Below are positions 1,079 to 62,177 of a stretch of 64,000 nucleotides of DNA, piece after piece; the stretch's first letter is position 1, and each line of letters opens with the position of its first letter. Under the pieces are notes generated by a model. It saw only the letters and a program-made list of their open reading frames with translations, did not search any database and had not been told where the DNA came from. The stretch comes from Ignavibacteriota bacterium. GTDB lineage: Bacteria > Bacteroidota > Ignavibacteria > Palsa-1295. The translations under genes were made by a program, and so were the position numbers. The stretch is from assembly GCA_963787835.1 (NCBI GenBank), contig CAWBEI010000004.1:224001-288000 (forward strand), read 5' to 3'.

Positions 1079-1110
1079 AATTCATACTTCATAATTCATA
1101 CTTCATAATT
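1079..1110. repeat. heptamer tandem repeat (TTCATAC/TTCATAA x4)
   Basis: aattcatacttcataattcatacttcataatt between the alpha and beta genes. Confidence 0.85.
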
Positions 1111-1118
1111 TTCAGACT

Positions 1119-2174
1119 ATGCCATCTATTTCAAAACCTATTGTAACTCATCCCAGCCTTGAAAAGAATGCGCTGGGACTTAATCTCCGCGCCTACGAAG
1201 GTGCTATGTCCACGCTCTGCGCGGGCTGCGGACACGATTCCGTCACCGCCGCCATCGTTCGCGCGGCGTGGAAGCTATCCATAGAGCCATACAAAATGGC
1301 GAAGTTTTCCGGCATCGGATGTTCGTCCAAAACGCCGACGTATTTCGTTAGCGGTGCGCACGGTTTCAATTCCGCGCACGGACGTATGCCCGCCATCGCG
1401 ACAGGCGCAGGCGCAGCAAACCGTTCGCTTCTTTCTATCGGTATTTCCGGTGATGGCGATTCGCTTTCCATTGGCATCGGCCAGTTGGCTCACGCTATTC
1501 GCAGGAATCTTAATGTTGTCTATATCATCGAGAACAACGGTGTCTATGGACTTACAAAAGGACAATTCTCTGCTTCTGCGGATATTGGTTCCAAAAGCAA
1601 GAAGGGCGAGGCAAACCGCATTTCGCCGATCGATCCCGTGATGCTCGCACTCAGTTTGGGAGCGACGTTTGTTGCAAGAAGTTTCTCGGGAGATAAAGAG
1701 CAGCTTGTTCCGATCATTGAAGCGGCTGTCAAACATAACGGACTTGCGCTCATTGACGTTATTTCGCCATGCGTTACCTTTAACGATCACGAAGGCTCGA
1801 CCAAAAGCTATGCCTATACCCGCAAGCACGAATATCATGTCACCGATTCTGATGTTGTTTTTCCAATGGATGAGATCGTTGCAAATATCGGCGTCAATGG
1901 CGCCACGACGGTCATGATGCACGATGGCAGCCTCATAAAGTTCACCCGCACACCTGATGGCTACGACCCACGTGACCGTGCTAAAGTGTTTGCATATCTT
2001 CAGGAGCATCAACAGGAAGGAAAAGTACCGACCGGAATTCTATTTATCGACGAATCCGCGCCGGATATGCATGGTGTCATGGGTACGACCGATGTGCCAC
2101 TATCGCAAATCCCGTATGAGGTGCTCTGCCCTGGCAGCGCGGAATTGGAAAAGTTACAGGAGGAATTTAGATAG
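1119..2174 (+). CDS. 2-oxoacid:ferredoxin oxidoreductase beta subunit
   Basis: LCAGCGH, SGIGCSSK, TPP-binding GDGD...ENNGVYGLTKGQFS, ISPCVTFN. Confidence 0.95.
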   Translation: MPSISKPIVTHPSLEKNALGLNLRAYEGAMSTLCAGCGHDSVTAAIVRAAWKLSIEPYKMAKFSGIGCSSKTPTYFVSGAHGFNSAHGRMPAIATGAGAANRSLLSIGISGDGDSLSIGIGQLAHAIRRNLNVVYIIENNGVYGLTKGQFSASADIGSKSKKGEANRISPIDPVMLALSLGATFVARSFSGDKEQLVPIIEAAVKHNGLALIDVISPCVTFNDHEGSTKSYAYTRKHEYHVTDSDVVFPMDEIVANIGVNGATTVMMHDGSLIKFTRTPDGYDPRDRAKVFAYLQEHQQEGKVPTGILFIDESAPDMHGVMGTTDVPLSQIPYEVLCPGSAELEKLQEEFR

Positions 2175-2180
2175 AATGAT

Positions 2181-2426
2181 ATGAATGTTGTCACAATTCT
2201 TCTTGTAGTTTTAGGGGTCATGATCATAGTTTATATGATTCAAAGGTCTAATAAACTAAATCAAAAACCTTTCCATAATTCTGAGGATCTTCTATCGAGT
2301 TGGCCGAATAGGTCTCCAACGTATTACCGAGATCATCCCTGGGGCACGACGAAATTCGAACCAGGGGATTTAACTCGACTTGAGAAAGAGTTACGTAGTG
2401 CTTCTCGAGAAGAAGAAAAAGAATAG
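2181..2426 (+). CDS. small hypothetical membrane protein
   Basis: 81 aa ORF with an N-terminal hydrophobic helix; fills the gap after the beta subunit. Confidence 0.55.
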   Translation: MNVVTILLVVLGVMIIVYMIQRSNKLNQKPFHNSEDLLSSWPNRSPTYYRDHPWGTTKFEPGDLTRLEKELRSASREEEKE

Positions 2427-2472
2427 ATTGAATCTTCGCTCAAGGAAGCAGATTTTTTCGTATTTTTGCTCC

Positions 2473-3051
2473 ATGAGGGTTTTTGTTCTCATTATATTAA
2501 TTTTGATTCCATACATATCCCATGCCCAGCAGGGGCAAACATGGGTTGCCGGAATCGGATTGGGCCAGGCTTTTGGGGTAAATGAAGACCGGACTCGCCC
2601 GCTCGTGCTGGTGGGACGTGCGGAGTGCGTGGCATTCAATAGTATTGTGCCGGGAGTAAGTCCGGAATTTGGTATTAGTCTGTTTACCTTGCACAGCACA
2701 AATTCTGGCGCCCCGACCGATTACCGCACCCAGATGATTACACCGGATCTACGATTTCGGTTTAGTCCGCTTACATCGCTCACCTGGTTCCCTTATTTGT
2801 ACGGAGGAGCAGGGATGGCAATTTACAAAGTTCTGCAAGTTCCGCCGGCCGCATCGCCGGAAGCTTACCTATCCAGCGCAGTACCATTCCTCACCGCTGG
2901 AATTGGAATCTCACATCAGATTTCAGAAAATATCGGGCTTGATGTTAATCTCGGTCCAGCCGTTGCGCTTTCGGACGACATCAATCCTGTGCATGATGGT
3001 GAGGACGATGGATGGTGGAATGGTGTGCTTAGTATCTATTGGATCTTCTAA
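2473..3051 (+). CDS. outer membrane beta-barrel protein (OmpA/OmpW-like 8-stranded)
   Basis: Signal peptide MRVFVLIILILIPYISHA; PYLYGGAG and GIGISH strands; C-terminal aromatic YWIF; start reassigned to ATG 2473. Confidence 0.75.
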   Translation: MRVFVLIILILIPYISHAQQGQTWVAGIGLGQAFGVNEDRTRPLVLVGRAECVAFNSIVPGVSPEFGISLFTLHSTNSGAPTDYRTQMITPDLRFRFSPLTSLTWFPYLYGGAGMAIYKVLQVPPAASPEAYLSSAVPFLTAGIGISHQISENIGLDVNLGPAVALSDDINPVHDGEDDGWWNGVLSIYWIF

Positions 3052-3090
3052 GATAAAACTATAAGCTCATCGTTTGCCGTTAAGATAATC

Positions 3091-4236
3091 ATGTGGACGA
3101 ACGTCATCGGTGACACGCGAGTAAAGCATATCTTAAAGAATGCACTGGAGCACGAAAAGCTTCCGGGCGCGTATCTTTTTTCTGGGCCGGAAGGCACAGG
3201 CAAGGATGCGGCAGCTATCGAGCTTGCGAAAGCTGTGAATTGTCTGAATCCGGCGATGGGCGGTATTGAGGCGTGTGATGCATGTGAAAGCTGCGTTTCT
3301 ATTTCAAGCTTCACATCACCGGCGGTATTATTCATTCATGCGCTGCCAAAAAAATCTGATGACGATGGCGCAGATCTGAAAGAAGAAGATGTCGCTATCG
3401 TGCGTGAGCAACGAATGGCAAAAGCAGCCGATCCTTATTATAATTTCGAGATACCTCGCGCAATGGCCATTCATATCGGTCAGATCCGGGAACTTCGGCT
3501 ATTATTGGCGCGGAGTATGTCCGGCGCAAAAAAGCGCGTAGTCATTATCAGCGAAGCGCAAATGATGAACGATAAATCTCAGAACGCTTTTCTGAAAACG
3601 CTCGAAGAACCTCATGCCAATACCGTTATTATTCTCACCAGTTCGAATGCCAATGGTTTGCTCCCAACGGTACACTCGCGATGTCAGGAAGTTCGCTTCG
3701 ATGTTCTGAGTGTAGATGAGATTAAACAAGCACTTGCGGAGCGTGAGTCACTTTCTGAAGAAGAAGCATCGTTTCTCGCCCGTCTTGCAGCGGGAAGTTA
3801 TTCGCGCGCTCGCGCAATGATCGGTGAGGATGTGAAAGAGATGCGCAAAGAAATTGTCACTTTTTTACGCATGGGTCTTTCGAAAAGTCGTCGCAATGCT
3901 GTTGTGGAGATCAACAAACTTCTGCCTCGCTCCGGAGGAAATTTTTTGGAAAAGCGGCAATCCGTCGAACAGTGCCTTGCGCTGCTCATGCTCTGGCTCC
4001 GCGATGCTCTGTCACTCTCTGTGGCAAAGGGCTCTTCGGGAATTGATGATCGCGAGATCATCAATCTTGATCAAATAGAGGACTTGATGAAATTTGTTGC
4101 ACGGTTTGGAGATCCTCGGCGTATCATTGCGGCAATTGAGGCGATCGATCGCGCTATGCACCGCACGAAACTTCAATTACAGCTTCGCCCTATTATGCTG
4201 CAATTAGTAGTGGATCTTGAAGCAGCATTGGTTTGA
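3091..4236 (+). CDS. holB: DNA polymerase III subunit delta'
   Basis: AYLFSGPEGTGK, Zn motif C..CDACESC, NAFLKTLEEP, LLPTVHSRC. Confidence 0.93.
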   Translation: MWTNVIGDTRVKHILKNALEHEKLPGAYLFSGPEGTGKDAAAIELAKAVNCLNPAMGGIEACDACESCVSISSFTSPAVLFIHALPKKSDDDGADLKEEDVAIVREQRMAKAADPYYNFEIPRAMAIHIGQIRELRLLLARSMSGAKKRVVIISEAQMMNDKSQNAFLKTLEEPHANTVIILTSSNANGLLPTVHSRCQEVRFDVLSVDEIKQALAERESLSEEEASFLARLAAGSYSRARAMIGEDVKEMRKEIVTFLRMGLSKSRRNAVVEINKLLPRSGGNFLEKRQSVEQCLALLMLWLRDALSLSVAKGSSGIDDREIINLDQIEDLMKFVARFGDPRRIIAAIEAIDRAMHRTKLQLQLRPIMLQLVVDLEAALV

Positions 4237-4279
4237 GAAATTCGGGATCAATATAGCTTTCTTCGTGAATATTAATTGA

Positions 4280-4420
4280 ATGACCTTCGATCATTTCCTT
4301 CAAGATCATTGGGCATTTTTCTTGTTAATAGGGGGTTCTTTTCTACTTAGAATACGATTCTGTGATGTAGTCGTAATGTTATTGCGATTTCTTGGTTTCG
4401 AAATTGGCGTGGAGCAATGA
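4280..4420 (+). CDS. putative small hydrophobic protein (46 aa)
   Basis: Hand-translated MTFDHFLQDHWAFFLLIGGSFLLRIRFCDVVVMLLRFLGFEIGVEQ*; below the ORF-track cutoff. Confidence 0.3.
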   Translation: MTFDHFLQDHWAFFLLIGGSFLLRIRFCDVVVMLLRFLGFEIGVEQ

Positions 4421-4550
4421 TTTGCGAGCATTGCGGGTACGCTGTTTTTCCTTAAGCCTTTCTTGGTTCGGTTTTCGGATATGAAGTTTTTGTATCGTTC
4501 GGTTGCGCTAAGCCGTGGTGGCTTGGAATTATTAATTGGGTGCACATCCT

Positions 4551-5143: not shown

Positions 5144-5182
5144 TAGAAGGAAGCCATACAGGGATAATCCACATCTTCCGGG

Positions 5183-6143
5183 TTAATCGAGTACGCGCTC
5201 CATTACCGTGATCCTTGTCTGTTTTTTTAACGACTCGATCATAATTTTTGCCCCAAAAGGTAGGGTCCACATTCGGCTCTCATGACCAAAAGGAAGGTTC
5301 GATAAAACCGGAATTCGTAGTTTCGAGAAGTAATCAGAAAAGACCTCGCTCAAGGTTGCAGTTGGCGCATCCGCATCCGTGTTACAATTAGTGAATCGGC
5401 CGAGCAAAATAGCCTTTGCATTATCAAAGGCTCCGGCAAGGCGGAGCTGAGCTGAAATGCGCATCGATCTTGCGGGGCTTTTCGTCGATCTCCTCGAAAA
5501 AAGGAATGGTTCCCTTGAAAGATAGCTGATACGGGGTGCCACGTAAACTTGAAAAAACAGTAAGATTTCCGCCGATGATTCTACCATGCACATCAAACGA
5601 AGTATGTCTATTCAAGAACACACCTTCGTTCGTTACGAGTGGTAGTTCGTCCAATGGTTTTGTGCTTGTCATCGCTCGCCAGAAATTCTCTTCTGTAAAG
5701 GGGTCGATGTTGTTCCACAAATCCACACCTGGCATGGGGCCGAAAAAACAGGAGGCTAATCTGGCCTTCTTATAGATAGCTGCAAACAGCGCGGTGGCAT
5801 CGGAATAACCGACGATGATCTTGGGGTGCTTGCGTATGAGATCATAGTCGAGCTTGTCCAGCAGCCGAATAGATCCGTATCCCCCACGATGGTAAAATAT
5901 TGCTCGAATGTGTTTGGATCGAAACATCGCGTGGATGTCCGCAACGCGATCTTTATCGGACGCAGCAAGATAGGTCTGCTTATCGATTCCATCCCGCAAA
6001 TGCTTGCCAAGTTCAACACGATACCCGAGCGATTCGAAATATTTAACCGACAACGCGATACGTTCCTCCGAACGAGGCGGACTTGCGGGAGCGATTATAC
6101 CGATCACGTCCCCTGGGCGAAGCGCTTTTGCTTTGAGTTGCAC
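5183..6143 (-). pseudogene. ldcA: LD-carboxypeptidase (peptidase S66), apparent frameshift near 5450-5456
   Basis: RGGYGS, IIVGYSDAT, GGNLTV and FEEIDE in one frame; QLRLAG..LLGRF..LPFGH..TLPFG in the adjacent frame. Confidence 0.88.
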
Positions 6144-6184
6144 AATATAATAAACAGCAGGGTGTGAGAAAGCATGTCCAACAC

Positions 6185-7608: not shown

Positions 7609-7614
7609 AAATTC

Positions 7615-8963: not shown

Positions 8964-9005
8964 TTTTTATCTATCCAGTTCGTTCCGGACGATCGCTCTA
9001 TCTGC

Positions 9006-12678: not shown

Positions 12679-12767
12679 GCATCGTCAACTATGCAGGCAT
12701 CGTCAGCGATGCAGGCATCGTCAGCGATGCAGGCATCGTCAGCGATGCGTGCATCATCAAAGATGCA
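12679..12767. repeat. five tandem 18-bp palindromic units (GCATCG-tcag-CGATGC-ag)
   Basis: Units start at 12679, 12697, 12715, 12733 and 12751; the last abuts the tRNA CCA end. Confidence 0.92.
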
Positions 12768-13959: not shown

Positions 13960-14155
13960 TCTGAACCAGGATGACGCGGATCAGGACGGATGACGCGGAT
14001 GAGTTAATAGAAATATTCACGTATCGTTTAACAAATACGGGCTCCTTTCGTCCCGCGCCCGCCTCAAAATATATTGCAATGTCAATCCCGCTTTTGCGGG
14101 AATGACACGAAACCATCCGCGTCATCCGACTTAATCCGCGTAATCCAGGTTCAGA
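13960..14155. repeat. MITE-like element with ~42-bp terminal inverted repeats built from 9-bp units
   Basis: tctgaaccaggatgacgcggat..(13960-14001) is the inverted counterpart of ..atccgcgtaatccaggttcaga (14114-14155); contains palindrome tgtcaatcccgcttttgcgggaatgaca (14080-14107). Confidence 0.75.
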
Positions 14156-15424: not shown

Positions 15425-15474
15425 GGTTTTATGCTGCCCTGAAAAGTATTGCACGGCGCAAATAGTGCCCAATG

Positions 15475-15515
15475 TCTGAACTGGGATTTATGGGATGCAT
15501 GGGATTATTTGGATG
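15475..15515 (+). repeat. 9-bp tandem repeat arm (tctgaac-TGGGATTTA family)
   Basis: tctgaactgggatttatgggatgcatgggattatttggatg; related copy at 62137. Confidence 0.7.
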
Positions 15516-15536
15516 CGATGCAAACGCCATAGGCGT

Positions 15537-15665
15537 GGCCCGTTTGTAGAAAAAATAATATTTGATATCATTAGCTCCGTAGGAGCGACCTATTGGCCGC
15601 TCCTACGGAGCTTGATAATGCCAAATAAAATGATTTTCTACAAACGGGCCGCTCCTAACGGAGCT
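15537..15665. repeat. nested REP/REPIN-like palindrome (GTAG type)
   Basis: Outer arms ggcccgtttgtagaaaa/ttttctacaaacgggcc; inner arms agctccgtaggagcg/cgctcctacggagct; a third partial copy contains the hemD stop. Confidence 0.8.
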
Positions 15666-16434
15666 TGCGAACGATTTCATTCGCCAAGCTTGTCATGTCT
15701 GCTCTCGGCGCAACAATTTCCGGCGCGCGGTGCAATGTTTCCTCAATGGCTTGTGCCGTCGTTCTGCCGATCGCGGCGAGAGTGGGGAGAGTATCGAGCA
15801 ATTCGGTTCCGGCAAGCGTTAGCGCAAAATTGATGACGGAGGATGGCGAAAAGAATGCGATCACATTGGGGCGCTCATTGCTTTGCATTAGTTGGATGAG
15901 CCGCACGGCATCGGCTGGCTTGGGCCCGTTCGTATGATACAACGTAACTCGCTCCGGCAAAGCACCAATTTCGCGAAGAGCATTCTCCAAAGTATTCAAC
16001 CCGATCTGCGATTGTAGCAGCAGGATGTGTTTTCCTGAGAGATCACTTTTAGAAAATGATGCAATTAATTCTCTGCTGCCGCCTTCGGAAGGAATGGGAA
16101 AGTGAATTTCAAAACCAAATTGTGTCAATTCTCTTGCCGTAGTTTCACCAACGGCTCCAAAGCAAGCATTCTTTCGAAGCGCATCAATCAGCCCAAGTTT
16201 TCGTGACCGTTGTTCGAAGAAATATACTGCGGTGGGACTGGAAAGAATAATACAGTCGAATTCTCCTCTCGCAGCACGACCAAGAGCAGAATTAAGCTCG
16301 CTTAGATCGGGTGGGAGCGAAAACGAGATCATCGGTATCTCTTCGATGACAATTCCCGCGCCGTTCAGAATGCGGTGCAGATCGTCATCATCAGAAGAAC
16401 GAATGCGAGGGCGCGTGAGCAGGACTCTTGGCAA
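15655..16434 (-). CDS. hemD: uroporphyrinogen-III synthase
   Basis: RVLLTRP, LSSPTAV, AVGETTA, FFSPSSV, AAIGRTTA; directly downstream of hemC. Confidence 0.9.
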   Translation of the reverse strand: MPRVLLTRPRIRSSDDDDLHRILNGAGIVIEEIPMISFSLPPDLSELNSALGRAARGEFDCIILSSPTAVYFFEQRSRKLGLIDALRKNACFGAVGETTARELTQFGFEIHFPIPSEGGSRELIASFSKSDLSGKHILLLQSQIGLNTLENALREIGALPERVTLYHTNGPKPADAVRLIQLMQSNERPNVIAFFSPSSVINFALTLAGTELLDTLPTLAAIGRTTAQAIEETLHRAPEIVAPRADMTSLANEIVRKLR

Positions 16435-16510
16435 TTATGAATGATGAATTCTGAATGATGAAAAATCCTTCGTTAGACATAACATAATTCATCATTCATA
16501 ATTCATCATT
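16435..16510. repeat. inverted pair of heptamer arrays (ATGAATG/ATGAATT)
   Basis: ttatgaatgatgaattctgaatgatgaa ... cataattcatcattcataattcatcatt; contains the hemC stop. Confidence 0.8.
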
Positions 16511-17424
16511 GCCAACAACTCTTTCCCACCCATATCGAGCAATGTTCTCGCAAGGTCTGCACCAATTTGCTCTGCTGTGCTAACATCGCCGGTATGAACA
16601 GCACGCACAAGCGATTCACCATTCATTGCAGCGATACAGCCGGAAAGCTCCAGCACGTTGTCAACGATCTTTCCATGAGTACCGATAGGAACCTGACATC
16701 CACCACCGAGCGCTAGTAATAATGCGCGTTCTGCGGTTACGCTTTGCTTTGTCGCGTCATGATTGAGCGGAGCAAGAAGTTCTAGCGTTTTTGCATCACC
16801 ACTTCTGCATTCAATTCCCAGCGCGCCCTGTCCAGCAGCAGGTAATACCCATTCGAGTGAGATCGTATGGGCAATGTGCTCCGTTAGTCCAAGCCGTTCG
16901 AGACCTGCGCGAGCAAGGATCATTCCATCCCAATTGGATTCGAGCATTTTACGAATGCGTGTCGGCACGTTACCGCGAATATCGACAATACGGAAATCAG
17001 GGCGTTTGGTTAGGAGTTGTGCGATCCGGCGCAGGCTTCCAGTTGCTATGGTCGCGCCATCTGGCAGGTCCATCAGGCGAGTGTTCGTGTCTTTGGCGAG
17101 GAACACATCCTCTACATTTGCGCGCTCGGGAATAGCTCCAAGGGTAAGGGCATCGGGCAATGATGTCGGAAGATCTTTCAAGCTGTGAACGGCAATATCG
17201 ATTTCATTTGCCAGGAGTGCGGTTTCTAACTCTTTTGTGAAAACACCTTTTCCGCCGATCATCGAGAGTGAAGAATCGAGTATCTTATCGCCGGTGGTGT
17301 GAATATGCTTGATGGTAACTTCGAGGTCTGGATGTGCGGCACGCAGGCGGTCGCGGATATAGTTCGATTGCCATAGCGCAAGGTCGCTTGCTCGGGAACC
17401 AATAGTGAGATGCCGCACGCTCAC
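16492..17424 (-). CDS. hemC: hydroxymethylbilane synthase (porphobilinogen deaminase)
   Basis: GSRASDLALWQ, GKGVFTKELE, AVHSLKDLP, RGNVPTR, GGCQVPIG. Confidence 0.97.
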   Translation of the reverse strand: MSVRHLTIGSRASDLALWQSNYIRDRLRAAHPDLEVTIKHIHTTGDKILDSSLSMIGGKGVFTKELETALLANEIDIAVHSLKDLPTSLPDALTLGAIPERANVEDVFLAKDTNTRLMDLPDGATIATGSLRRIAQLLTKRPDFRIVDIRGNVPTRIRKMLESNWDGMILARAGLERLGLTEHIAHTISLEWVLPAAGQGALGIECRSGDAKTLELLAPLNHDATKQSVTAERALLLALGGGCQVPIGTHGKIVDNVLELSGCIAAMNGESLVRAVHTGDVSTAEQIGADLARTLLDMGGKELLAMMNYE

Positions 17425-20691: not shown

Positions 20692-20803
20692 AGTGGATAG
20701 TTAAAAAGTGGAGAGTGGATAGTGATTCATTCTTGCTTGATGTAGATTTAATTGAGAGCGATTTACTGCCCCATTTTCCACTATCCACTGTCAACTATCC
20801 ACT
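20692..20803. repeat. inverted pair of heptamer arrays (AGTGGAT/ATCCACT)
   Basis: agtggatagttaaaaagtggagagtggatagtga ... ttttccactatccactgtcaactatccact. Confidence 0.75.
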
Positions 20804-21057
20804 GACTTCGCTACTTCTTCCTCAATGGCCTCGCGCAGGGCCGGGCGGATAAAGTTATTCCCAAGCCCATATTCATTCAGGCCGAGTGCGAGGGTCCGAA
20901 TTTTCTTCGGCACCGTGAACCGGCGGTTAATAACAAGTAATTTCTCTTCGCGCAGCAGGCAATAGCCACCGCCGAAATTTCCATTCTCGAAACGGAGCTT
21001 AATGCCAAGCTCGCTCGCGAGGCCCTTTAATTCTTCAAATAATTCTTCGTGAGTCAT
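20791..21057 (-). CDS. conserved hypothetical protein
   Basis: MTHEELFEELKGLA..LRFENGNFGGGYCLL..VINRR; plausible head of the operon. Confidence 0.75.
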   Translation of the reverse strand: MTHEELFEELKGLASELGIKLRFENGNFGGGYCLLREEKLLVINRRFTVPKKIRTLALGLNEYGLGNNFIRPALREAIEEEVAKSVDS

Positions 21058-21158
21058 GTAGTAATAATGCAACCGAACCACAGCAACAGAAAAAGCAATG
21101 GATTTAGTTGAGATGGTGAACAGGATTCATTTGTATAAGATGGACATTTCTATCTGCA

Positions 21159-23881: not shown

Positions 23882-25144
23882 ATGCCGGAAACGACCGAAA
23901 TTCAGCCGAAATCGCTAGCCATTCGCACTATTCCGAATGGGGCAGAGGTGCGTCTGCCGCGCAGCCAGACCACGCCTCTTCCTGACCACATTATCGCTGC
24001 AAGCGAGGAAATGCGGGAGATCGTCTCCGTCGTTCGGGCGATTGCGCCGACGGCCATCACGGTTCTCCTGATCGGCGAAAGTGGGACGGGTAAGGAAGTA
24101 TTTGCCGAACTCATCCACGATCTGAGCGAGCGAAAAGGGCCATTTGTCACTGTTAATTGTGGCGCGATACCGGAGGGACTGATCGAGTCCGAATTATTCG
24201 GACATGAAAAAGGATCGTTCACCGGGGCGGTCGGTCAGCGCAAAGGATTTTTCGAAGCCGCGCAGGATGGCACGCTATTCTTGGATGAGATCGGTGACAT
24301 GCCCTTGCAATTGCAGGTAAAGCTTTTGCGTGCGATAGAAACGGGAACATTTACCCGTGTCGGTTCAACGACTCAGCAAAAGACGAACGCTCGCATTATT
24401 GCTGCTACGAATCGCGATCTTGAGATTGATGTACGCGCCGGTACCTTCCGGGCCGATCTCTATTACCGGTTGCGAGCCGTGATGCTTCGCATTCCGCCGT
24501 TACGCAACCGGCGCGAAGATATTCCGTTCCTTATCGAGACGATGCTCGAAGAGTTCGTCCACAAGCATCATATTGTTGGGCCGGATGGCAAGCCCCGTAT
24601 GCCACAGTTGATGCCGGATGCTACTCAGGCGCTGATCGATCACGAATGGCGGGGGAATATTCGGGAATTAAAAAATACGCTGGAACAGCTCGTCGTCCTG
24701 GTGTGCGCGGTGCAGCAAAATGATGGTCGTTGCATTATTTCCGCGCGCGATGTTGAGCGCTCGCTTGCATCGAGCGCGAATGGATGGGACGGCCAGCGGT
24801 TCGAGCGAACGCTGCCCGCGCCGGCGGTACCACGCGAAAATCCGCAGACGGAACGGGAGCTTATTTACCGCGCATTGCTCGAACTTCGCAGCGATATTGC
24901 CGAGATCAAGAACATCCTTCATGAGCGTGGCACGAACCCACCTCCAACGAATACGCTGGCGCTTCCTGCATCCTCTGCTGGGAGTGCGGAGCCAATTCGT
25001 TCGTTAGACGATCTCGAAACCGAAGCCATTCAGCACGCACTTAATTTTTATCATGGCAACCGCCGCCACGCCGCGAAAGCCCTCGGCATCAGCGAACGAT
25101 CGCTGTACCGAAAACTGAAGGAGAAAGGACTTGAGCAAGTATGA
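23882..25144 (+). CDS. sigma-54-dependent Fis-family transcriptional activator (no receiver domain)
   Basis: GESGTGKE, ESELFGHEKGSFTGA, LFLDEIG, WRGNIREL, C-terminal HTH LGISERSLYRKL. Confidence 0.94.
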   Translation: MPETTEIQPKSLAIRTIPNGAEVRLPRSQTTPLPDHIIAASEEMREIVSVVRAIAPTAITVLLIGESGTGKEVFAELIHDLSERKGPFVTVNCGAIPEGLIESELFGHEKGSFTGAVGQRKGFFEAAQDGTLFLDEIGDMPLQLQVKLLRAIETGTFTRVGSTTQQKTNARIIAATNRDLEIDVRAGTFRADLYYRLRAVMLRIPPLRNRREDIPFLIETMLEEFVHKHHIVGPDGKPRMPQLMPDATQALIDHEWRGNIRELKNTLEQLVVLVCAVQQNDGRCIISARDVERSLASSANGWDGQRFERTLPAPAVPRENPQTERELIYRALLELRSDIAEIKNILHERGTNPPPTNTLALPASSAGSAEPIRSLDDLETEAIQHALNFYHGNRRHAAKALGISERSLYRKLKEKGLEQV

Positions 25145-25251
25145 GGTATGAAGTATGAAGTATGAAAGGGGAAATGTTTTTCGTCGTGTGATGGAGGGCG
25201 GAGTAATTTATTTTTCTCTTCTTTTTATACTTCATACTTCATACTTCATAC
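25139..25251. repeat. inverted pair of heptamer arrays (GTATGAA/TTCATAC) overlapping the lptE 5' end
   Basis: gtatgaggtatgaagtatgaagtatgaa ... tttatacttcatacttcatacttcatac. Confidence 0.82.
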
Positions 25252-25712
25252 TTGCAACAGGATGTTATTCCTTCACCGGCGCCAGCATCCCGCCGCATAT
25301 TCATACCATTGGCATTCCGCTGGTCGAGGATAATTCCGGGTTCGGACAATCGGCGGTGCATCAGGACCTGACGGATCAGCTTACGCAGAAATTCACCAGC
25401 GAGGGTTCGCTGCGCGTGGGAAGTGTTTCGTCTTCGGATGCCAAGATCGAAGCATCCATCCCGGCTTCCGGTATCGATGACGAGCCTGTAAGCGTCAAAG
25501 CCGGTGAGATCGTAACCACAAAGCAGATCACGCTAAAAGTTCACGCCATCTACACCGACCAGAAAAAGCAAAAAGTGTTTTGGGAACGCGATTTCGCCGA
25601 AACTGCTCCCTATGCCATCTCCGGCGGGCTCTCTGCCCAACATACCGCCCTTTCCCAGGCCGAAGATAAAGTTACCAGCGATATTCTGATCGCCGTTATT
25701 TCGAATTGGTAA
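25155..25712 (+). CDS. lptE: LptE-family lipoprotein
   Basis: Lipobox ATGC followed by YSFTGASIPPHIHTIGIP; C-terminal ISNW; adjacent to the sigma54 activator as in Bacteroidota. Confidence 0.82.
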   Translation: MKYERGNVFRRVMEGGVIYFSLLFILHTSYFILATGCYSFTGASIPPHIHTIGIPLVEDNSGFGQSAVHQDLTDQLTQKFTSEGSLRVGSVSSSDAKIEASIPASGIDDEPVSVKAGEIVTTKQITLKVHAIYTDQKKQKVFWERDFAETAPYAISGGLSAQHTALSQAEDKVTSDILIAVISNW

Positions 25713-28668: not shown

Positions 28669-28998
28669 GTATTCCCTAACGGCAAGGCTGAGATAACAGT
28701 TGCCAGAATAATATCCGGATTTCAAGCGCGGGGGAAAATAATGACGTAGATTAGTGTTTGCTTTGATGGGCACCTGTATCAATTTTCAATTAAGAATTGA
28801 GAATTAAGAATGGGGGCTGCGATCGTTCATTGAAAATTGCGATGGGTTTCGATATGAACGAGTTCTTTGTGAAAGGGAATTTTTAATAACTTTTACAACA
28901 AATGGCGAAATTAGCTCAAATTCGAGGGTGGTCGGGAACTCAACAAGAAAAAAAATGGCACCTATTTCTTTGGGCAAGTGAGCACCATTTTCCAGTAG

Positions 28999-30195
28999 CT
29001 AATGAGTACCTTGTTTCTCATACCGCTCCACAAACTCGGGGTCGCGGCGGCGGAGATTTTCGTGATCTACTTTGCCGGAGCGGGTCATGAGCTTGTAGGC
29101 AAAGGGGAGCGGGTCGAGGTGCATGTAGTCCTTGAGGTTTTCGAACATGAGCAGGCTTTCCATGGCTGCTTCCTGGTATTCGTCCACCACGGGCCGGCGC
29201 CGCGCTTCGAATTCGATGAGGGCATCGGGAAGTTTATCGGTTGTTTGGAGCGCGTGGAATAAGGCGATCGAATCCTCCAGCGCAAGCTTGGTTCCCGAAC
29301 CGATCGAGAAATGGACGGTGGCGAGGGAATCGCCAAGCAATGTAGCGCAAACTTCAGTTTGCGATCGGGCGTAAGGGTCGCGAACTGAAGTTCGCGCAAC
29401 ATTTTGCGCCACGCACCACCAATGCCGGTTACGAACGAAGGTAAAATTCAGCCATTTGGAATTATTCGAGAGCAAGGGTTCACCCTGAAGATCGAGATGA
29501 AACACTTGTTCGAGATAGTGACGAGCAGAGTCATCATCCATATCTTCGAAACCTGCGGATTCCCATGTTTCGGGATCGCACTCGACGATGAAGGTGCTGG
29601 TATTTTTATCGAATTTGTACGCATGAGCAGCAAACACTCCGGCGCTATTCTCTCGGAAGATGAGAGTCAGCCCATGGAACAAATGCCGTGTACCGAACCA
29701 GATATATTTATTGCTTCGCGTGGAAAGATCGGGCTTGAACTGCTCCTGGAACTCGGAACGAACTCCGCTGGCAACGCCATCGGCGCCAACAACGAGATCG
29801 TATCCACCGCCGCGCACCAGGGATTCTATATGATTCACAGGCAAACGAAAATGAAGATTTACTCCAAGCTCGCCGCATCGATCCTGAAGAACTTTCAGCA
29901 TTTCGATGCGCGCGATGCCGGAAAATTTATTTCCACGCACGGTGATCTTTTCATCGCGATAAATAATATCGACGTTCTCCCAGCGTTCGAAGCGGTCGAT
30001 AATTCCTTGCCACGATGGGACGTCCTCCGCTTCGAGATAACTGAGCGTTTTATCCGAGAACACGACGCCCCAGCCGAAGGTATCGGTTGGTGCGTTGCGC
30101 TCGAAGAGGTCGATGTGGACTTCGGGACGCCATTTTTTTACGAGGAGCGAAAAATACAAACCCGCCGGTCCGCCGCCGATAACTGCGATCTTCAT
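28999..30195 (-). CDS. FAD-dependent monooxygenase (salicylyl-CoA/anthraniloyl-CoA monooxygenase N-terminal-like)
   Basis: GGGPAGLY, TFGWGVVFSD, ADG, LLGD..HFSIGSGTKLALED, LMTRS. Confidence 0.88.
   Translation of the reverse strand: MKIAVIGGGPAGLYFSLLVKKWRPEVHIDLFERNAPTDTFGWGVVFSDKTLSYLEAEDVPSWQGIIDRFERWENVDIIYRDEKITVRGNKFSGIARIEMLKVLQDRCGELGVNLHFRLPVNHIESLVRGGGYDLVVGADGVASGVRSEFQEQFKPDLSTRSNKYIWFGTRHLFHGLTLIFRENSAGVFAAHAYKFDKNTSTFIVECDPETWESAGFEDMDDDSARHYLEQVFHLDLQGEPLLSNNSKWLNFTFVRNRHWWCVAQNVARTSVRDPYARSQTEVCATLLGDSLATVHFSIGSGTKLALEDSIALFHALQTTDKLPDALIEFEARRRPVVDEYQEAAMESLLMFENLKDYMHLDPLPFAYKLMTRSGKVDHENLRRRDPEFVERYEKQGTH
29341..29401. repeat. GTAG-type REP-like palindrome inserted in frame in the monooxygenase gene
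   Basis: Arms tgtagcgcaaacttcagtttgcga (29341-29364) and tcgcgaactgaagttcgcgcaaca (29378-29401), 21/24 complementary. Confidence 0.85.
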
Positions 30196-36904: not shown

Positions 36905-37204
36905 GAAATGTAACCAACGATAAAGGCGTCCTTTTTGTCTCTTAGCAGCATGATGTCATTACAACGTCGAAGTAATGACAATATGATACCCACCCTGTAT
37001 TCGATTCCAGCCCACTTTCGTCCGTTGTGTCTTATGGAAATAGGTGCCCGTTAAACGCAATTGAATTGTCATTTAATGAACTATATTTCACTTTGTGTCA
37101 ATTATTCATTAACTTCCGTGTGAAAATTAATGCGCCCCCAATTTTCAATGAACATGACACCCCCACAATTCCTACAGACACTTGGTGCCTATAGTCACAC
37201 TCTC

Positions 37205-37268: not shown

Positions 37269-37343
37269 GTAGCGCAGGCGTCCTCGCCTGTCCCCGGGTT
37301 GCATGTGTGCCGTGATGGGGATCGGCTTGGACGCCGGCGCTAC
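37269..37343. repeat. GTAG-type REP-like inverted repeat
   Basis: gtagcgcaggcgtcc (37269-37283) and ggacgccggcgctac (37329-37343), 14/15 complementary. Confidence 0.7.
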
Positions 37344-40956: not shown

Positions 40957-41038
40957 TGTCATTCCCGCGAAAGCGGGAATCCAGACTTCAAGTTGCTACG
41001 AAACCCGAATTTGGATTCCCGCTTTCGCGGGAATGACA
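40957..41038. repeat. palindromic repeat doublet (GTCATTCCCGCGAAAGCGGGAATCCA type)
   Basis: Perfect 27-bp inverted arms at 40957-40983 and 41012-41038, each an internal ATTCCC-N8-GGGAAT palindrome. Confidence 0.9.
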
Positions 41039-42312: not shown

Positions 42313-43275
42313 TTATAGTATTCTCTTCCCCATGCTGCTCGCGATGAGATCGGCAGCAAACTCTGCGCTGGCATTGCGAACATCGAGAATAGGATTAACC
42401 TCGGCAACTTCCATCGAAGCCATATAGCCCGTATCGGCGATCACTTCCATGATGAGATGTGCCTCGCGGTACGTTATTCCTCCGGGAACCGGTGTGCCAA
42501 CGCCACTTGCGATCGTTGGGTCAACGACGTCAAGGTCGAAGCTGACATGGAGATGATCGACCTTTTCTCGTAGCGAAGCAACAGCTTGTGTAATGAGCGT
42601 ATATACTCCTTGTTTATCGAGATCTTCCATCGTGTGCGCTTCGATCTTCAATTTATGGATAAGCGCACGTTCGCCAACATCTACAGATCGAAGTCCGATA
42701 TACACAAGCTGACTTGGTAACAGCTTTGGCTCAGGCCCTCCGATACTTGTCAGCGCAGGATTTCCCATGCCAAGCGCAACGGCCGCCGGCATTCCATGAA
42801 TATTTCCGCTCGGAGAAGTTTCGGGAATGTTAATATCAGTATGCGCATCGATCCAGATCACGCCAAGCCGTTTGTTCAGCCGTTTGCAGTGCGCGGCAAT
42901 TCCGGCGATAGTGCCGATCGCCATAGAATGATCGCCGCCGAGCACAAGCGGAAATTCGCTTTGATCGAGCGCGGATTCTACTTCTGATGCAAGAAGGGTG
43001 CAGGCGTTCGCAATTTCAGGCAAATAGGGAAGCTTAACGTCTTCAATTTCCTGAACTTCTGCATTACGAATCTCGATATCGCCAGCGTCGATCACATGAT
43101 AGCCCAATGTGCGAAGTTTTTCGCTGACCCCTGCGATACGAATCGCGGACGGCCCCATATCCACACCACGGCGGCCAGCTCCCAGATCCATAGGGAATCC
43201 GATAATTCGAACAAAACCGGGTGGGAAAGAACCGGGATTACGCGGATGATGCGGATTTTTCGGATTAGTATTCAA
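42313..43275 (-). CDS. rocF: arginase
   Basis: [44 protein letters not shown]. Confidence 0.95.
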
Positions 43276-43372
43276 GCGGTAAGGAAAAAAATAATATTAT
43301 TGGAAGTAGGAGTTTGAATTAATCCTTAAAATCAATCCAGAAAATCTGCATCATCCGCGTAATCCCGGTTCT
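43228..43372. repeat. 39-bp inverted repeat element of the 9-bp-unit family spanning the accD/arginase junction
   Basis: agaaccgggattacgcggatgatgcggatttttcggatt (43228-43266) versus reverse complement of 43334-43372, 36/39 identical. Confidence 0.85.
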
Positions 43373-48904: not shown

Positions 48905-48937
48905 AATTCATACTTCATCATTCATAATTCATACTTT
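48905..48937. repeat. heptamer tandem repeat (TTCATAC family) upstream of tRNA-Phe
   Basis: aattcatacttcatcattcataattcatacttt. Confidence 0.75.
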
Positions 48938-54174: not shown

Positions 54175-54187
54175 GTGAATGCCGATC

Positions 54188-55207: not shown

Positions 55208-55275
55208 TCCACAAAAATACTCAATTGCCTGCCCTCATGTCGCAGAGCGTTCAATTTTTCTGATCTATGATCCTA

Positions 55276-57936: not shown

Positions 57937-58161
57937 AGCTGATGCAAGGATAAGGTTTTAGGATGAGGATGAAAGTAAGGGGATGTCTCAAGACTACAAA
58001 ACGATACCGAGGATAAGTCGGGGAAACTTCCGAAGGTTATTTAAAGAAATTCATAGTCCTTTAATACTTTATATCCCATATTACACGATTTCATAACAAT
58101 TAATTCAACGTCAGACATAATTTTCTTAAAGAACGGCGGCGTAGTCGTGCGAGCGTAGTAT

Positions 58162-59853
58162 TTAACTCTTTTTGAATTGCACCGCTTTCCACTTTAAGAA
58201 AAGTGGCTTGCATTTATTCCGTTGATATTTTCCCGTGCTCGTGACGGGTATTTCGTTACCGAATACCACGACTTTGGGCGATTTAGAAAATGGCAGGAAC
58301 GCGTGACAGTGTGTCAAGACTTCCTCGGCACTCACCGCGGGCCCTTCGACCGGTTGGACATAAGCGCCGATTTCCTCACCATAAAAATCATTCTCGAATC
58401 CAACGGCGATCGCGGCCTTGACTTTTGGGCATTTTGCAAGCACCTCATCAATTTCAAGCGGGGAAATGTTGACTCCGCCACGAATGATTAGCTCCTTAAT
58501 TCGACCCGTGATAAAGAAAAATTTTCGCCCGGTCGCATCCATTTCATAAAAACCTTCGTCACCCGATCGAAACCAGCCGTAGCTAAAGGTATTCTCATTC
58601 GCCTCATCATTTTCATAATAATATTTCATGACGTTCTCACCTCGGATCGCGATCTCACCTTTTTCACCGGGGGCAAGTTCTCGGCCCGATTCATCGGCGA
58701 TCATCATTTCATTTTGTGGAATTGCCACGCCGATCGAAGGATAGCCATGTGCGCGCATCCAATGCCGATGTTCTTCTTCTGAAAGGTCAATTGGAAGAAA
58801 GCACGAATAACACGTCGTTTCACTTAGGCCATATCCATGCATGATCGGGATACTGAAGATATCTTCGAATTGTGCACCAAGCTCCACGGTAAGCGGTCCC
58901 GCGCCGCAGATAATGTGCCTCAGTGTTGCTCGCTGAGCGTTCATTGATTCGAGCAAAGCGGGTTGGGATTTATAATATTCTATCAAGAATGCAAGTAATG
59001 TTGGAACTACGCTGACGACATTCACTCGCTCGCGTTCAATGCGCTCGAAAAAGTGCTCGGACTGAAATTTTTGGTTCAGCACGACCGTCCCGCCAAAATA
59101 CATTGGCGTCACAAGCGTCACAACAGTGCCGTTAACGTGATGAATAGGAAGTACACACATCATACGCTGTGAGTTTTTCATTCCGTGCCATTCGGTTATG
59201 CCTTTTGCATCCGCAAGTAAATTGCGCTGAGTGAGCACGACGCCCTTGGGATTGCCGGTTGTTCCACTGGTATAAACGATCAGGGCTTCATCTTCGATGG
59301 TTACGGCTTCGTCACTGGAAAAAAAAGGGTTGGCGCTTTCTATTTCCTCTTCAAAGTTTCCAGAGCCACAAAGTAGGACGGAGTGGACGGAGTGGACGGA
59401 GTGGACGGGTTGGATAATCGGAGAGATTCGAATTCCATAATCCTGTCTGAGAAATACGAGCTTTGCCTTGCTGTTTTCAAGGATATATCGAATTCGGTTG
59501 TCATCTTCGGAAAGGCTTACGGGAACCACACATGCACCCATCAGCCAGGCTGCAAAATATTGGATCACCGTATCCGAATGGTTATGGCTTATTGTCGCAA
59601 CCCGGTCTCCACGCCGGAGGCCATGCGAGCGCATCACGTTTGCGCATCTTCCGACGAGATCGAAGAATTCTTTGAAGCTGAATGAAGTCCTGTATCCTTG
59701 AAGATCATAATAGATAAGATAGGGCTTCGTATCGTAAGCACGAGCGTGCTTGAAGAGAAGTTCGCCAATGTTTTGATACTCGCTCGCTGTTTCAAGACCG
59801 TTCGAAACACGGCGGGCACTCGATATCTTTTTGAGGATTGCTTCAGATAACAT
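58162..59853 (-). CDS. class I adenylate-forming enzyme (acyl-CoA ligase family)
   Basis: YTSGTTGNPKG, GYGLSET, GWFRSGDEG, GRIKELIIRGG, TSTGK; start uncertain (59853-59868). Confidence 0.92.
   Translation of the reverse strand: MLSEAILKKISSARRVSNGLETASEYQNIGELLFKHARAYDTKPYLIYYDLQGYRTSFSFKEFFDLVGRCANVMRSHGLRRGDRVATISHNHSDTVIQYFAAWLMGACVVPVSLSEDDNRIRYILENSKAKLVFLRQDYGIRISPIIQPVHSVHSVHSVLLCGSGNFEEEIESANPFFSSDEAVTIEDEALIVYTSGTTGNPKGVVLTQRNLLADAKGITEWHGMKNSQRMMCVLPIHHVNGTVVTLVTPMYFGGTVVLNQKFQSEHFFERIERERVNVVSVVPTLLAFLIEYYKSQPALLESMNAQRATLRHIICGAGPLTVELGAQFEDIFSIPIMHGYGLSETTCYSCFLPIDLSEEEHRHWMRAHGYPSIGVAIPQNEMMIADESGRELAPGEKGEIAIRGENVMKYYYENDEANENTFSYGWFRSGDEGFYEMDATGRKFFFITGRIKELIIRGGVNISPLEIDEVLAKCPKVKAAIAVGFENDFYGEEIGAYVQPVEGPAVSAEEVLTHCHAFLPFSKSPKVVVFGNEIPVTSTGKYQRNKCKPLFLKWKAVQFKKS
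59376..59408. repeat. in-frame 9-bp tandem repeat (GGACGGAGT x~3.7) encoding VHSVHSVHSV
   Basis: ggacggagtggacggagtggacggagtggacgg. Confidence 0.85.
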
Positions 59854-59903
59854 ACCGCAAGCAACCAATTTGAACCTGAAATAAACTCCCGACGAAGATT
59901 CGT

Positions 59904-60557
59904 TCAGTGATTAACGAATCGCCTCGACGGAGAAGAAGCAACGTGTCCCGTGGGCATTTCTCCGGCTCTTGCTGTAAATAGTGTGTGTAATACACCATCC
60001 TCATCCCACATCTCGCGCAGTTCATCGAAGGTCATGATCCGTTTGCCTGGATCGGGACGAGCGGGATCGAGGATAAATATTTTTCCCTCTTTTTCATCGT
60101 ACCCGAAAACGAGCATCGCGTGATACCACGTATGTGTATTAGTAACACGCGGTACTCGTATCGAAACGATCACAGGTCTTCCATCGTCGAGAGATTGCTC
60201 GATGGCTGAGATGGCATTATGAAAACCGGCACTATCGTTGTGCCATTGCCAACGGTCCCACGTATATCCAATTTTCTTAATTCCTTCCTGAACCTCTTCG
60301 AATGATGTTGTGCTAAACAGGTCTTTATGCTCATTCGAAAGCCGTTTGACCGTCCATTGGGATTTCCCTTCACCATAGAAATTCATTGCCATGGATACAC
60401 ACGTCGGTAAGCAAAGATCGGGACTCTGTTGCTCATGCATTATATCGAGATAAGCGTACTGACCCCGCACGATTGGTTTTGACGGCTGGGTAAATGCGGA
60501 GCTTGATAGTAAAAAAGTGGCTATTAAGCAAATAATGAACTTGAAAGTGGTTCGCAT
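59904..60557 (-). CDS. secreted C39-like cysteine peptidase
   Basis: Signal peptide; QQSPDLCLPTC; GRPVIV; HAMLVFGYD; ILDP; start at ATG 60557. Confidence 0.8.
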   Translation of the reverse strand: MRTTFKFIICLIATFLLSSSAFTQPSKPIVRGQYAYLDIMHEQQSPDLCLPTCVSMAMNFYGEGKSQWTVKRLSNEHKDLFSTTSFEEVQEGIKKIGYTWDRWQWHNDSAGFHNAISAIEQSLDDGRPVIVSIRVPRVTNTHTWYHAMLVFGYDEKEGKIFILDPARPDPGKRIMTFDELREMWDEDGVLHTLFTARAGEMPTGHVASSPSRRFVNH

Positions 60558-60680
60558 ACACAAATATACGGATTTTTGGAAAAAGAATCCAATTTTAAGT
60601 AATGATCTCAGCATTGCAACGAACCCTATTTTCACAATGTTTCCGTGCGTCTGTTCGCAAAACATGGCCAAGAGGCCGAA

Positions 60681-60765
60681 GCCGGAGTGGCGAAATTGGC
60701 AGACGCGCGAGACTTAGGATCTCGTATCGCAAGATGTGCAGGTTCAAGTCCTGTCTCCGGCACCA
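60681..60765 (+). tRNA. tRNA-Leu(TAG)
   Basis: GCCGGAG..CGAGA CT TAG GA TCTCG..GGTTCAAGTCC..CTCCGGC ACCA; lies upstream of tig as in many bacteria. Confidence 0.96.
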
Positions 60766-60768
60766 TTC

Positions 60769-60855
60769 AATGAAGAATGAAAAATTAAGAATTTCGCTCG
60801 TACTGAGAAATCCTGATCGCTTAATTTTTCATTCTTAATGCTTAATTTTTAATTC
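60769..60855. repeat. inverted pair of heptamer arrays (ATTAAGA/TTCTTAA family)
   Basis: aatgaagaatgaaaaattaagaatt ... ttaatttttcattcttaatgcttaatttttaattc. Confidence 0.72.
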
Positions 60856-60859
60856 AAAA

Positions 60860-62141
60860 TTGACTGCTACTATCTACGAAAAAAGTCCGATCGCGCGGGA
60901 GCTTGAGATCAAGGTCGATGAAACCGAGCTTCAGGCGGCATTTGATGAAGCATACAAGACGATGCGGCCCCGCCTTTCGCTACCAGGATTTTCGTCCCGG
61001 CAAAGCGCCGATCGGTCTCGTAAAAAAATTGCATGGCGATGCCATCGAAGGCGATGCGCTCGAAAAACTCGCGCAGGATAAATTCCGGGAAGCTGCCGAA
61101 GAATATAAGATCGAGCCGCTCGGCGCTCCGGTCATGACCGATCTTCACCGACATGCCGGTGAGGGTGCTCATTTCAAGATCATGTATGAGGTCTCGCCGG
61201 AAATCGAGATCAAAGATTTCTCTGGAATGGAAGTTGAAAAGAAAACTCTGACCATTTCCGATACCGATGTAACGGATCGCATCGAGCGCCTGCGATTCGG
61301 ACTTGCTGAGCGAGAGCCGACTGCGAAAGTGGAAGATGCTCATACCATCGTCAAACTCGAGATGCGAGAGATGGATGTCCCCGAAGGAGCCGAACCCGGC
61401 AAATCGGAGCAGACCGAAGTGTACCTCGCTGATCCGGAGATCATCCCGGAATTACGAAACGGGATCGTTGGTGAGGAAGTCGGGGTGCAACTCATTCTTA
61501 CACTACCGCAACGCAAACGCGAGCCCGGCACCGATCTTATGAAGGAAGAAATTGGCCGCGTCGAAGTAACGGTGCTCGAAGCCCAGCGAGTCCTGCTTCC
61601 TCCGCTTGACGAATCGCTTATCAAGAAGATATCCGAGGATAAACTTTCGACAGAAGAAGAATTGCGGAATGAAATCCGTAATGGTTTGGAACAATCGGCG
61701 GCCAAAAAGTCTGAAGAAGACTTAGAAGAGCAAATTGTTTCCAAGCTTATGGAAATGCACCCATTTGAAGTTCCGCGAACGATCTCGAATGCCATTCTTG
61801 GCCAGATGATCGAAGAGCGCGAGCAGGAGAATGTACGACGTGGATTCCCCGCAACGTACGGAGTCGATGATGCTCAATTCCGCGAGCAATACAGGCCCGT
61901 TGCCGATGCACGAGCTAAATGGATGCTTCTGCGCGAGAAACTGATCGAATCAGAAGCTATTGAAGCGACTGACGAAGACCTCGATAAACTTGCCGAGGAA
62001 GAATCAGCCAAATATGGCCTTACAAAGGAGAACTTGCTGAAGTATTATCATAAGCACGATTCTATCTCGAACCGAATCATCAGCGATAAACTTGGCGCCC
62101 GTTTGCGGGAAAAAGTAAAGATCGTCGAGGCGGCTGTCTGA
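60860..62141 (+). pseudogene. tig: trigger factor, apparent frameshift (extra T in 60989-60992)
   Basis: Removing one T restores the ribosome-binding signature LPGFRPGKAP; lies between tRNA-Leu and clpP. Confidence 0.9.
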
Positions 62142-62177
62142 ACCAGGATTTATGGGATTATTGGGATTTATGGGATG
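62137..62177 (+). repeat. 9-bp tandem repeat arm supplying the tig stop codon
   Basis: tcTGAaccaggatttatgggattattgggatttatgggatg. Confidence 0.75.

Follow-up and report, generated by a model that had tools for sequence, protein, structure and literature searches.

The stretch analysed here, hereafter the window, spans 64,000 nt (C4:224001-288000) of the 3.57-Mb, seven-contig genome of an Ignavibacteriota bacterium (GCA_963787835.1, contig CAWBEI010000004.1), and carries hemC, hemD, accD, tig, uvrB and lptE together with short repeats that sit at or near the ends of such genes. Four repeat families, namely tandem heptamers, arms of 9-bp units, GTAG-type palindromes and dRS3 doublets (ATTCCC-N8-GGGAAT), are all present, as stated in an initial annotation made by a model from the letters alone; they occur at about 20 places rather than the roughly 18 it had counted. 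The commonest layout is an inverted pair with arms 25-110 nt apart, or a single arm of such a pair (Table 1), and dRS3 is represented by only one full doublet and one single copy. No transposase family was matched when 59 + 12 open reading frames (ORFs) of the window were scanned against Pfam, in keeping with the initial annotation. We propose that the repeats are probably the leftover inverted arms of likely selfish one-gene cassettes, which insert at the junctions between genes and, once their own gene is gone, come to code new protein ends.

The repeats are not confined to the window, and the rarity elsewhere that would have spoken against the initial annotation does not hold. Genome-wide there are 558 repeat clusters, about 10 per 64 kb, and the window is therefore denser than the genome average. 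Period-7 (heptamer) arrays number 242 against 6 in a block-shuffled control genome and period-9 arrays 132 against 19, while periods 5, 6, 8, 10 and 11 give 6-44 arrays against 3-20, a smaller excess or none; CGTC-type arms number 45 + 71 + 111 against 0 + 0 + 9, dRS3 making up the 45 against 0, and 9-mer arms number 124 against 19. Repeat counts are lower bounds and calls of empty sites are overcounted, because the strict detectors overlook decayed arms; examples are the pair at 20692-20804 and two left arms, at 16433 and at 60764. All eight pairs tested fold as hairpins (z = -3.5 to -13.4), with 0 of 200 shuffles folding equally well. The zone within 75 nt of a gene junction makes up about 27% of the genome and takes in 217 of the 242 heptamer arrays; occupied junctions number 455 out of 2626. 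Left arms begin a median of 1-7.5 nt past the stop codon, and right arms finish a median of 7-8 nt ahead of the start codon. The suggested preference for operon-internal junctions was not borne out: co-directional junctions hold 78% of the heptamers (p = 0.41) and 69% of the 9-mers (p = 0.28) against a background of 74%, and two GTAG subfamilies depart from that background in opposite directions (p = 0.01 and 0.02, uncorrected).

We searched the genome for the four gene types that the initial annotation had suggested, together with DUF559 genes, and inspected their flanks; all four types are present with cognate arms. Specifically, heptamer arms flank five of the six four-helix-bundle genes (PF05635; TIGR02436), TCTGAACC 9-mer arms flank all three GxxExxY genes (PF13366), TGTCAT-type palindromes including CGTC/dRS3 flank four of the five short GIY-YIG genes shown (PF01541), GTAG/GTCC-type arms flank eight of the nine loci shown (PF01797) of the tyrosine transposase associated with repetitive extragenic palindromes (REPs), or RAYT, one of the eight on one side only, and CCCCTCTCCC-type arms flank both DUF559 genes (PF04480). 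Comparisons were made with 14 same-genus genomes, ordered by a five-gene tree; G015, also among the comparisons, belongs to another genus. In the congeners, 9-mer-type arms are visible beside nearly all of the 27 GxxExxY loci inspected. The four-helix, GxxExxY and GIY-YIG cassettes that could be scored are co-directional with both neighbours (11/11), and, counting all 22 cassettes, 19 have a co-directional upstream neighbour. All five armed four-helix loci of the genome are flanked by protein or tRNA genes, not by 23S rRNA, and gene-less heptamer copies far outnumber full ones, with 242 arrays against 5 armed genes.

The arms of the window resemble those of the full cassettes, 12 of the 17 tested matching at 88-100%. 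The dRS3 doublet is identical over 27/27 nt to an arm of the cassette at C2:1473150, in which dRS3 arms stand on both sides of a short GIY-YIG gene; the GTAG-type element at 29339-29403 matches an arm beside the RAYT (PF01797) gene at C2:1501756 (96% over 28 nt), the 13960-14155 arm that of a full GxxExxY cassette (88% over 41 nt), and the 20692-20804 arms those of a four-helix cassette (90% over 31 nt). Within the 15530-15657 hairpin, 17/17 nt match sequence adjoining a RAYT gene, and position 15570 matches C2:353402. No full parent was found among the cassettes tested for the AAGTATG and AATGATG arms (16433, 25137, 48905).

Arm and gene also vary together. On a tree of the four-helix proteins, arm sequence tracks protein clade across non-orthologous loci, and a Mantel test of arm against protein gave rho 0.33 (26 loci, genus) and 0.30 (74 loci), with 0/2000 permutations in each case; both analyses exclude L258, a distant four-helix subtype, and the Mantel test also excludes five orthologous duplicates and L324, L336, L369 and L370. 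Across the phylum, 16 of 30 four-helix genes have a period-7 arm on each side, as do 16 of 22 further loci, some of them in other phyla; inverted arm matches occur at 18 of the 30 and 14 of the 22, against 26 of 870 cross-locus pairs. An AATTACG-type arm accompanies one four-helix clade into records titled Victivallales, Proteiniphilum and Lutibacter. These data bear on a purely local origin, by replication slippage and inverted duplication, in which small genes merely gather beside the tracts and nothing moves. Unit number does differ between relatives, and one tract of the window, in an acyl-CoA ligase gene, looks like such an expansion; near-identical arms nevertheless recur at unrelated loci, the AATTACG-type arm travels with its protein clade, and the pairing of each arm family with a specific gene largely refutes this account already, so that we give it hardly any credence.

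Two atypical tRNA-associated loci were also seen. The short GIY-YIG gene at G000:C5:67020-67214 has a tRNA gene before it and, in place of palindromic arms, a duplicate of the 3' part of that tRNA behind it. The other locus, G000:C6:66029-66235, is a four-helix cassette with an apparent frameshift, set between two tRNA genes that we take to be those for Ile and Ala, the arrangement of an rRNA spacer; a second heptamer pair, this one empty, comes after it.

Across the congeners a junction may be empty, or hold a full cassette, empty arms or another family. At the tRNA-Leu/tig junction, G003 has a full four-helix cassette where the window has empty arms. At C2:1313.6-1313.8 kb both arms remain, with the first nine codons of a gene that is whole in G002 and G014; this stub (1313.7 kb) was detected by synteny. 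At C4:366.5 kb a single arm is left of a GxxExxY cassette that three congeners have complete. A tblastn search for four-helix stubs near heptamer arms returned known genes and one doubtful match only. In a genome-wide comparison covering 2 Mb of sequence and four relatives, 81 of 101 junctions occupied here scored empty in a congener (decayed arms being partly missed), in line with the initial annotation's view of the repeats as non-autonomous and confined to the lineage. Several empty sites are tight stop/start overlaps, e.g. TGATG, ATGA and GTGA. No target-site duplication was seen by eye in empty/filled pairs, but the genomes are only 70-90% alike in protein.

Moreover, different families follow one another at the same site. 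Arms occupy the lptE junction in 11 of 14 congeners, with about seven heptamer units and two CGTC-type elements, and are absent from three; the tRNA-Leu/tig junction is occupied in 13 of 14, nine times by heptamer pairs, of several units, and four times by a GTAG hairpin, G015 having none; and the accD/arginase junction is occupied in 7 of 12 by three families. A further junction, beside a gene that from its sequence we presume to be D-Ala-D-Ala-ligase-like, bears different four-helix clades with different heptamers in G000 and G005. Because the named sites came from the initial annotation, two less biased tests of succession were run. Where a congener has a full four-helix cassette (15 junctions), the present genome has something at 9 (p = 0.0008) and a different unit or family at 8 (p = 0.004), in both cases against a 20% base rate and as tallied by eye.

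The same comparisons can be read as the host keeping hairpins as RNA signals, for RNase III, message stabilisation or binding of a translation regulator, with both arms changing together in place and replacement reflecting selection for any hairpin. The arms do stay complementary in each species, the tRNA-Leu/tig site is filled in nearly all congeners, and right arms finish a median of 7 nt ahead of start codons. Additionally, RNase III cuts out the Coxiella intervening sequence (IVS) (PMC4990558), and a regulatory role has been proposed for TAACTGA heptamers (PMC4679880). Against this stand the 81 of 101 occupied junctions that scored empty in a congener, the lack of bias among junction classes and the 72 of 126 heptamer arms at co-directional junctions that have no pairing partner; nor can change in place explain a switch between unrelated families with genes of their own. 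We therefore consider RNA signalling an unlikely explanation of the repeats as a whole, which may serve as a secondary role at a few sites.

The repeats that we read as cassette remnants reach into proteins, as the initial annotation had proposed of them as a source of termini. Among 2586 high-scoring genes, kept from 3417 called by a simple caller, 63 have a stop codon that falls in an arm facing outward, where two shifted nulls give 6.4 and 9.8. No residue is gained in 40 of these, at least one in 23 and at least three in 16, with SEP, EPGLR and SEPGLRG recurring as arm-coded ends before the stop. N-terminal read-through of an arm was found in 4 of 101 testable genes, three false matches having been taken out by eye. 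The arm contribution to proteins is thus a minority effect. By eye, the purine-rich strand carries a stop in 9 of the 10 commonest heptamer units, 6 of which also spell ATGA, and since the period is 7 nt the stop recurs in all three frames, while the pyrimidine-rich strand codes F, L, I, H, S and Y. The stop and ATGA content partly reflects base composition.

The stops of hemC (16492), hemD (15655), accD (43351), tig (62141) and ORF 20791 all lie inside arms, as initially annotated; in hemD and tig the arm supplies no more than the stop or one residue. AccD ends HLASEPGLRG here and HLA or HLL in armless congeners, and ORF 20791 ends SVDS where relatives end AAEAA, VREAV and others. HemC ends MMNYE, and its clade is without the tail of about 15 residues kept by ten other congeners; because G014 lacks both the hemC arms and the tail, a link between arm insertion and tail loss can only be inferred. 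HemD starts at a TTG at the arm end here and in G002, and at ATG or GTG in most others. For LptE, the annotated origin of the signal peptide in the repeat stands: the frame reads through the right arm, and because no ATG, GTG, TTG or CTG lies between that arm and the lipobox cysteine, FILHTSYFIL must belong to the leader, barring a non-canonical start. The signal-peptide core comes from the gene's own heptamer, of several different units, in 10 of 14 congeners, and armless ones have an ordinary leader; the left arm of the same pair offers an ATG in all three frames. The annotated arm-coded N-terminus of arginase holds in part: the frame appears to read through from the arm, the same lack of an ATG, GTG, TTG or CTG applies, and PRNPGS-like residues recur here and in five congeners. 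In G013, accD and arginase overlap at ATGA amid a collapsed hairpin. A TTG start of tig as the repeat's gift was rejected, the TTG being common to congeners with other families, and the link between the uvrB TTG and its arm is loose, as G011 has the TTG and no evident arm. In the window, an extra T at 60989 shifts the tig frame, the true start being a TTG near 60859; it is probably an assembly error, since one contig of run X1 (depth 3.3) is without it and relatives are intact. An LD-carboxypeptidase at 5183-6143 is split much like tig.

Repeats also lie inside genes. The first of two internal insertions named in the initial annotation, in a flavin monooxygenase, is in frame and adds 60 nt to the uninserted state; the loop measures 60 nt in G003, G004, G008 and G015, and 12 genomes have a loop of 72-132 nt that never breaks the frame, in which the insert is GTAG-type in six, DUF559-type in two (non-sisters on the tree) and unclassified in four. 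The second could not be upheld: the acyl-CoA ligase tract is only about one 9-bp unit (about three residues) longer than the SVxSVx tract shared by many congeners, and only seven such 9-mer arrays occur genome-wide. In an Eco57I-type restriction-modification gene (L252:228-3311 in G006, L250 in G013, L260 in G002) we observed a full heptamer-armed four-helix cassette. The methylase frame is open across about 450 nt of cassette in G006 and G013, with the four-helix gene in another frame, and slips near the right arm in G002; of the 16 changes that separate G013 from G006, 12 affect the third codon position in the four-helix frame, with 3 against 15 residue changes. The same methylase gene bears other in-frame repeat inserts. 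A host frame that is stop-free across the cassette is found for only 4 of 79 four-helix genes, three of them at this locus.

Such inserts raise the question of whether cassettes are cut from RNA like introns and the message rejoined, the arm-coded peptides never being made. IVSs are excised without rejoining, which counts against this; the frame is kept in all 12 lengthened monooxygenase loops and the methylase frame is stop-free across the whole cassette, both of which point to translation through the insert. Even though the long perfect stems resemble rRNA IVSs and the four-helix gene belongs to the IVS gene family (PMC4990558), splicing of this kind strikes us as very improbable.

The cassette reading suggests the following course. 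A cassette without a promoter of its own would be read through from the host operon, and the protein it encodes would recognise the cassette's arms in the form of single-stranded hairpins. RAYTs are known to cut their cognate hairpins. Such cutting has also been published for Ssn (PMC11893778), and by analogy GxxExxY and DUF559 proteins may recognise hairpins too. The four-helix protein, which is without a known catalytic site and of whose family a homopentameric ring is reported (PMC4990558, PMC3936711), would bind the arms and borrow a nuclease in trans. Host repair would then patch the element in, without evident target duplication and often erasing a few codons, and the gene would later be deleted from the loop. 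Relics would be tolerated, as the stops of most purine-rich left heptamer arms fall in all three frames, and pyrimidine-rich right arms, read as hydrophobic residues, could replace a signal-peptide core. Occupied sites might be struck again, either because the hairpin is itself a target or because the junction tolerates insertions.

Several points weigh against this reading. Mobility of cassettes and arms is deduced from sequence comparison, movement itself not having been observed, and no same-strain empty site was found in four public DNA runs for two window parts at patchy cover. The compared genomes are kin and not independent. Arm words are shared more by same-genome than by cross-genome pairs (0.14 against 0.05), so that host composition adds to the Mantel signal. 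The four-helix protein is not known to have enzyme activity, and its sole structure match is 2RLD, an uncharacterised protein. Translation of the arm-coded termini is a prediction from sequence. A genome-wide replacement test gave 9/101 against 18/408, in the same direction and not significant (p = 0.08), and in the GxxExxY set a different family was found at only 1 of 9 sites. Sites are thus likely re-used, and the strength of the effect is uncertain.

A wider form of the proposal, which we regard as possible and put forward tentatively, is that these cassettes would belong to a general bacterial class of promoterless hairpin-armed elements, in which the unrelated small four-helix-bundle, GxxExxY, DUF559, GIY-YIG and RAYT proteins would each recognise and spread arms of their own. 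A four-helix pentamer would read a clade-specific heptamer code, elements would target each other's hairpins so that one family follows another at a fixed junction, heptamer arms, as adaptors with stops and starts in all frames, would repeatedly rebuild protein ends and signal peptides, and a cassette could be overprinted in an open host gene.

Parts of this picture have precedents. REP/REPIN-RAYT systems were reportedly described by Nunvar in 2010 and by Bertels and Rainey in 2011. The window has GTAG inverted pairs, and the same repeat stands beside a Y1 transposase gene in the genome. The same GTAG palindromes, as inverted pairs beside a tyrosine transposase, were reported together with CGTC repeats by Di Nocera et al. 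2013 (PMC3733652), including REP ends that supply stop codons as well as REPs lying within ORFs or at their termini. Here, in contrast, at least five arm families with different genes are present together and take each other's place at a single site, divergent junctions show no avoidance, and CGTC repeats, given no partner gene in the available part of that paper, flank GIY-YIG genes. The ATTCCC-N8-GGGAAT arms around a short single-domain GIY-YIG gene, as at C2:1473150 here, are those of the Ssn nucleases and their NTS/dRS3 sites (Chenal et al. 2025, PMC11893778), for which sequence-specific cutting of single-stranded DNA was shown and NTS-ssnA-NTS was likened to a mobile element; that paper, in the part available, covers CGTC/dRS3 only and is silent on arms of heptamers or 9-mers, on the genes that go with them and on termini coded by arms. 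The Coxiella 23S rRNA IVS (Warrier et al. 2016, PMC4990558) has the same four-helix (S23p, PF05635) ORF between terminal inverted repeats, with tandem heptamers upstream of the ORF; the cassettes here are found outside 23S rRNA, within operons that give mRNA and next to tRNA genes. TAACTGA heptamers (MacGregor 2015, PMC4679880) are likewise 7-bp tandems just upstream of starts, with all-frame stops, overlap with gene ends and no known mechanism. The available main text has no 'four helix', 'intervening' or 'S23', whereas here heptamers form inverted pairs around a specific gene. The four-helix gene at L327 (G157) is flanked by TCAGTT-/AACTGA-type arms, which are similar to this orphan TAACTGA heptamer. 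[quoted passage not shown] As regards classical MITEs, the cassette parents found encode four-helix, GxxExxY, GIY-YIG, Y1 or DUF559 proteins, with no DDE parent bearing the same ends among them, DDE families not having been searched genome-wide.

RAYT/GTAG and Ssn/dRS3 systems, repeat-coded termini, in-frame inserts and one repeat-built signal peptide are therefore already published. Neither heptamer-armed four-helix cassettes outside rRNA nor 9-mer-armed GxxExxY cassettes were found in the literature, subscription papers and supplements being largely beyond reach, and the two gene-arm pairings are undescribed within the literature searched. New are the measured effect on protein ends, the succession of several families at named sites on a species tree and the overprinted methylase cassette; the initial annotation had recognised neither the repeats as paired cassette arms nor the replacement of one family by another at a given site. 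For the bacterial heptamer repeats, long without explanation, the pairings offer both a parent element and a partner protein; for the uncharacterised four-helix-bundle and GxxExxY families they offer a substrate, which makes the function of these proteins testable, as for the Ssn nucleases. In a single genus, selfish DNA would have remade an envelope lipoprotein's signal peptide several times, which gives a measurable supply of new protein sequence, and automatic start-codon calls near arms are unreliable.

Table 1. Repeat features of the window and the coding sequence they touch
Position	Strand	Feature	Coding context
1079-1111	+	Solo right heptamer arm (CATACTT/CATAATT)	Ends 7 nt ahead of porB-like ATG
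13960-14155	.	Paired 9-mer (GxxExxY-type) arms, 13960-14001 and 14114-14155	BNR gene stop inside arm
14086-14107		Single dRS3-type palindrome nested within 13960-14155	
15473-15515	+	Solo 9-mer arm	
15530-15657	.	Nested GTAG-type hairpin	Outer end carries hemD stop (15655-15657)
16428-16516	-	Paired heptamer arms (AATGATG/AATTATG)	Code hemC end MMNYE-stop and hemD TTG start (16434)
20692-20804	-	Paired AGTGGAT heptamer arms	Code SVDS-stop of ORF 20791-21081; adjoin next gene's ATG
25135-25255	+	Paired AAGTATG heptamer arms	Left, sigma-54 regulator end EQV-stop; right, LptE FILHTSYFIL
28779-28812	-	Solo AATTAAG heptamer arm	Followed by two more repeat families, 28853-28866 and 28953-28967
29339-29403	-	GTAG-type REPIN	In frame in flavin monooxygenase (28999-30195), in place of ENIV-type loop
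32335-32368	+	Solo right AATTAAG-type arm	Ends in uvrB TTG start
37269-37343	.	GTAG-type hairpin, read by eye	
40957-41038	.	dRS3/NTS doublet (ATTCCC-N8-GGGAAT), 27-nt perfect inverted pair	
43228-43372	-	Paired 9-mer arms	Code accD end SEPGLRG-stop and PHHPRNPGS in frame with arginase
48905-48937	+	Solo right heptamer arm	Ahead of tRNA-Phe
59376-59408	-	GGACGGAGT x3.7 tract (VHS repeats), weak member	In acyl-CoA ligase
60764-60866	+	Paired AATTAAG/AATGAAG arms	Between tRNA-Leu and tig
62135-62177	+	Solo left 9-mer arm	Carries tig stop

Smaller features accompany these repeats. At the tig/clpP junction (L107-L113), several congeners have small extra genes of 450-930 nt, some of them after a 9-mer arm. 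Further repeat families comprise TATGAACGAGTTCT (50 copies) and AAATGGCACCTATTT (54 copies), with window sites at 28853-28866, 28953-28967 and 37034-37046. Five tandem 18-bp units beside a tRNA-Leu gene (12679-12767) are part of a family of tiny palindromes, GCATCG-N4-CGATGC, present in 64 copies genome-wide against 2 in the control; GCATGA-N4-TCATGC occurs 29 times against 1, and CCGCCGCGGCGG 17 times against 1. Many of these tiny palindromes lie within the loops of larger arms, like parasites of parasites.

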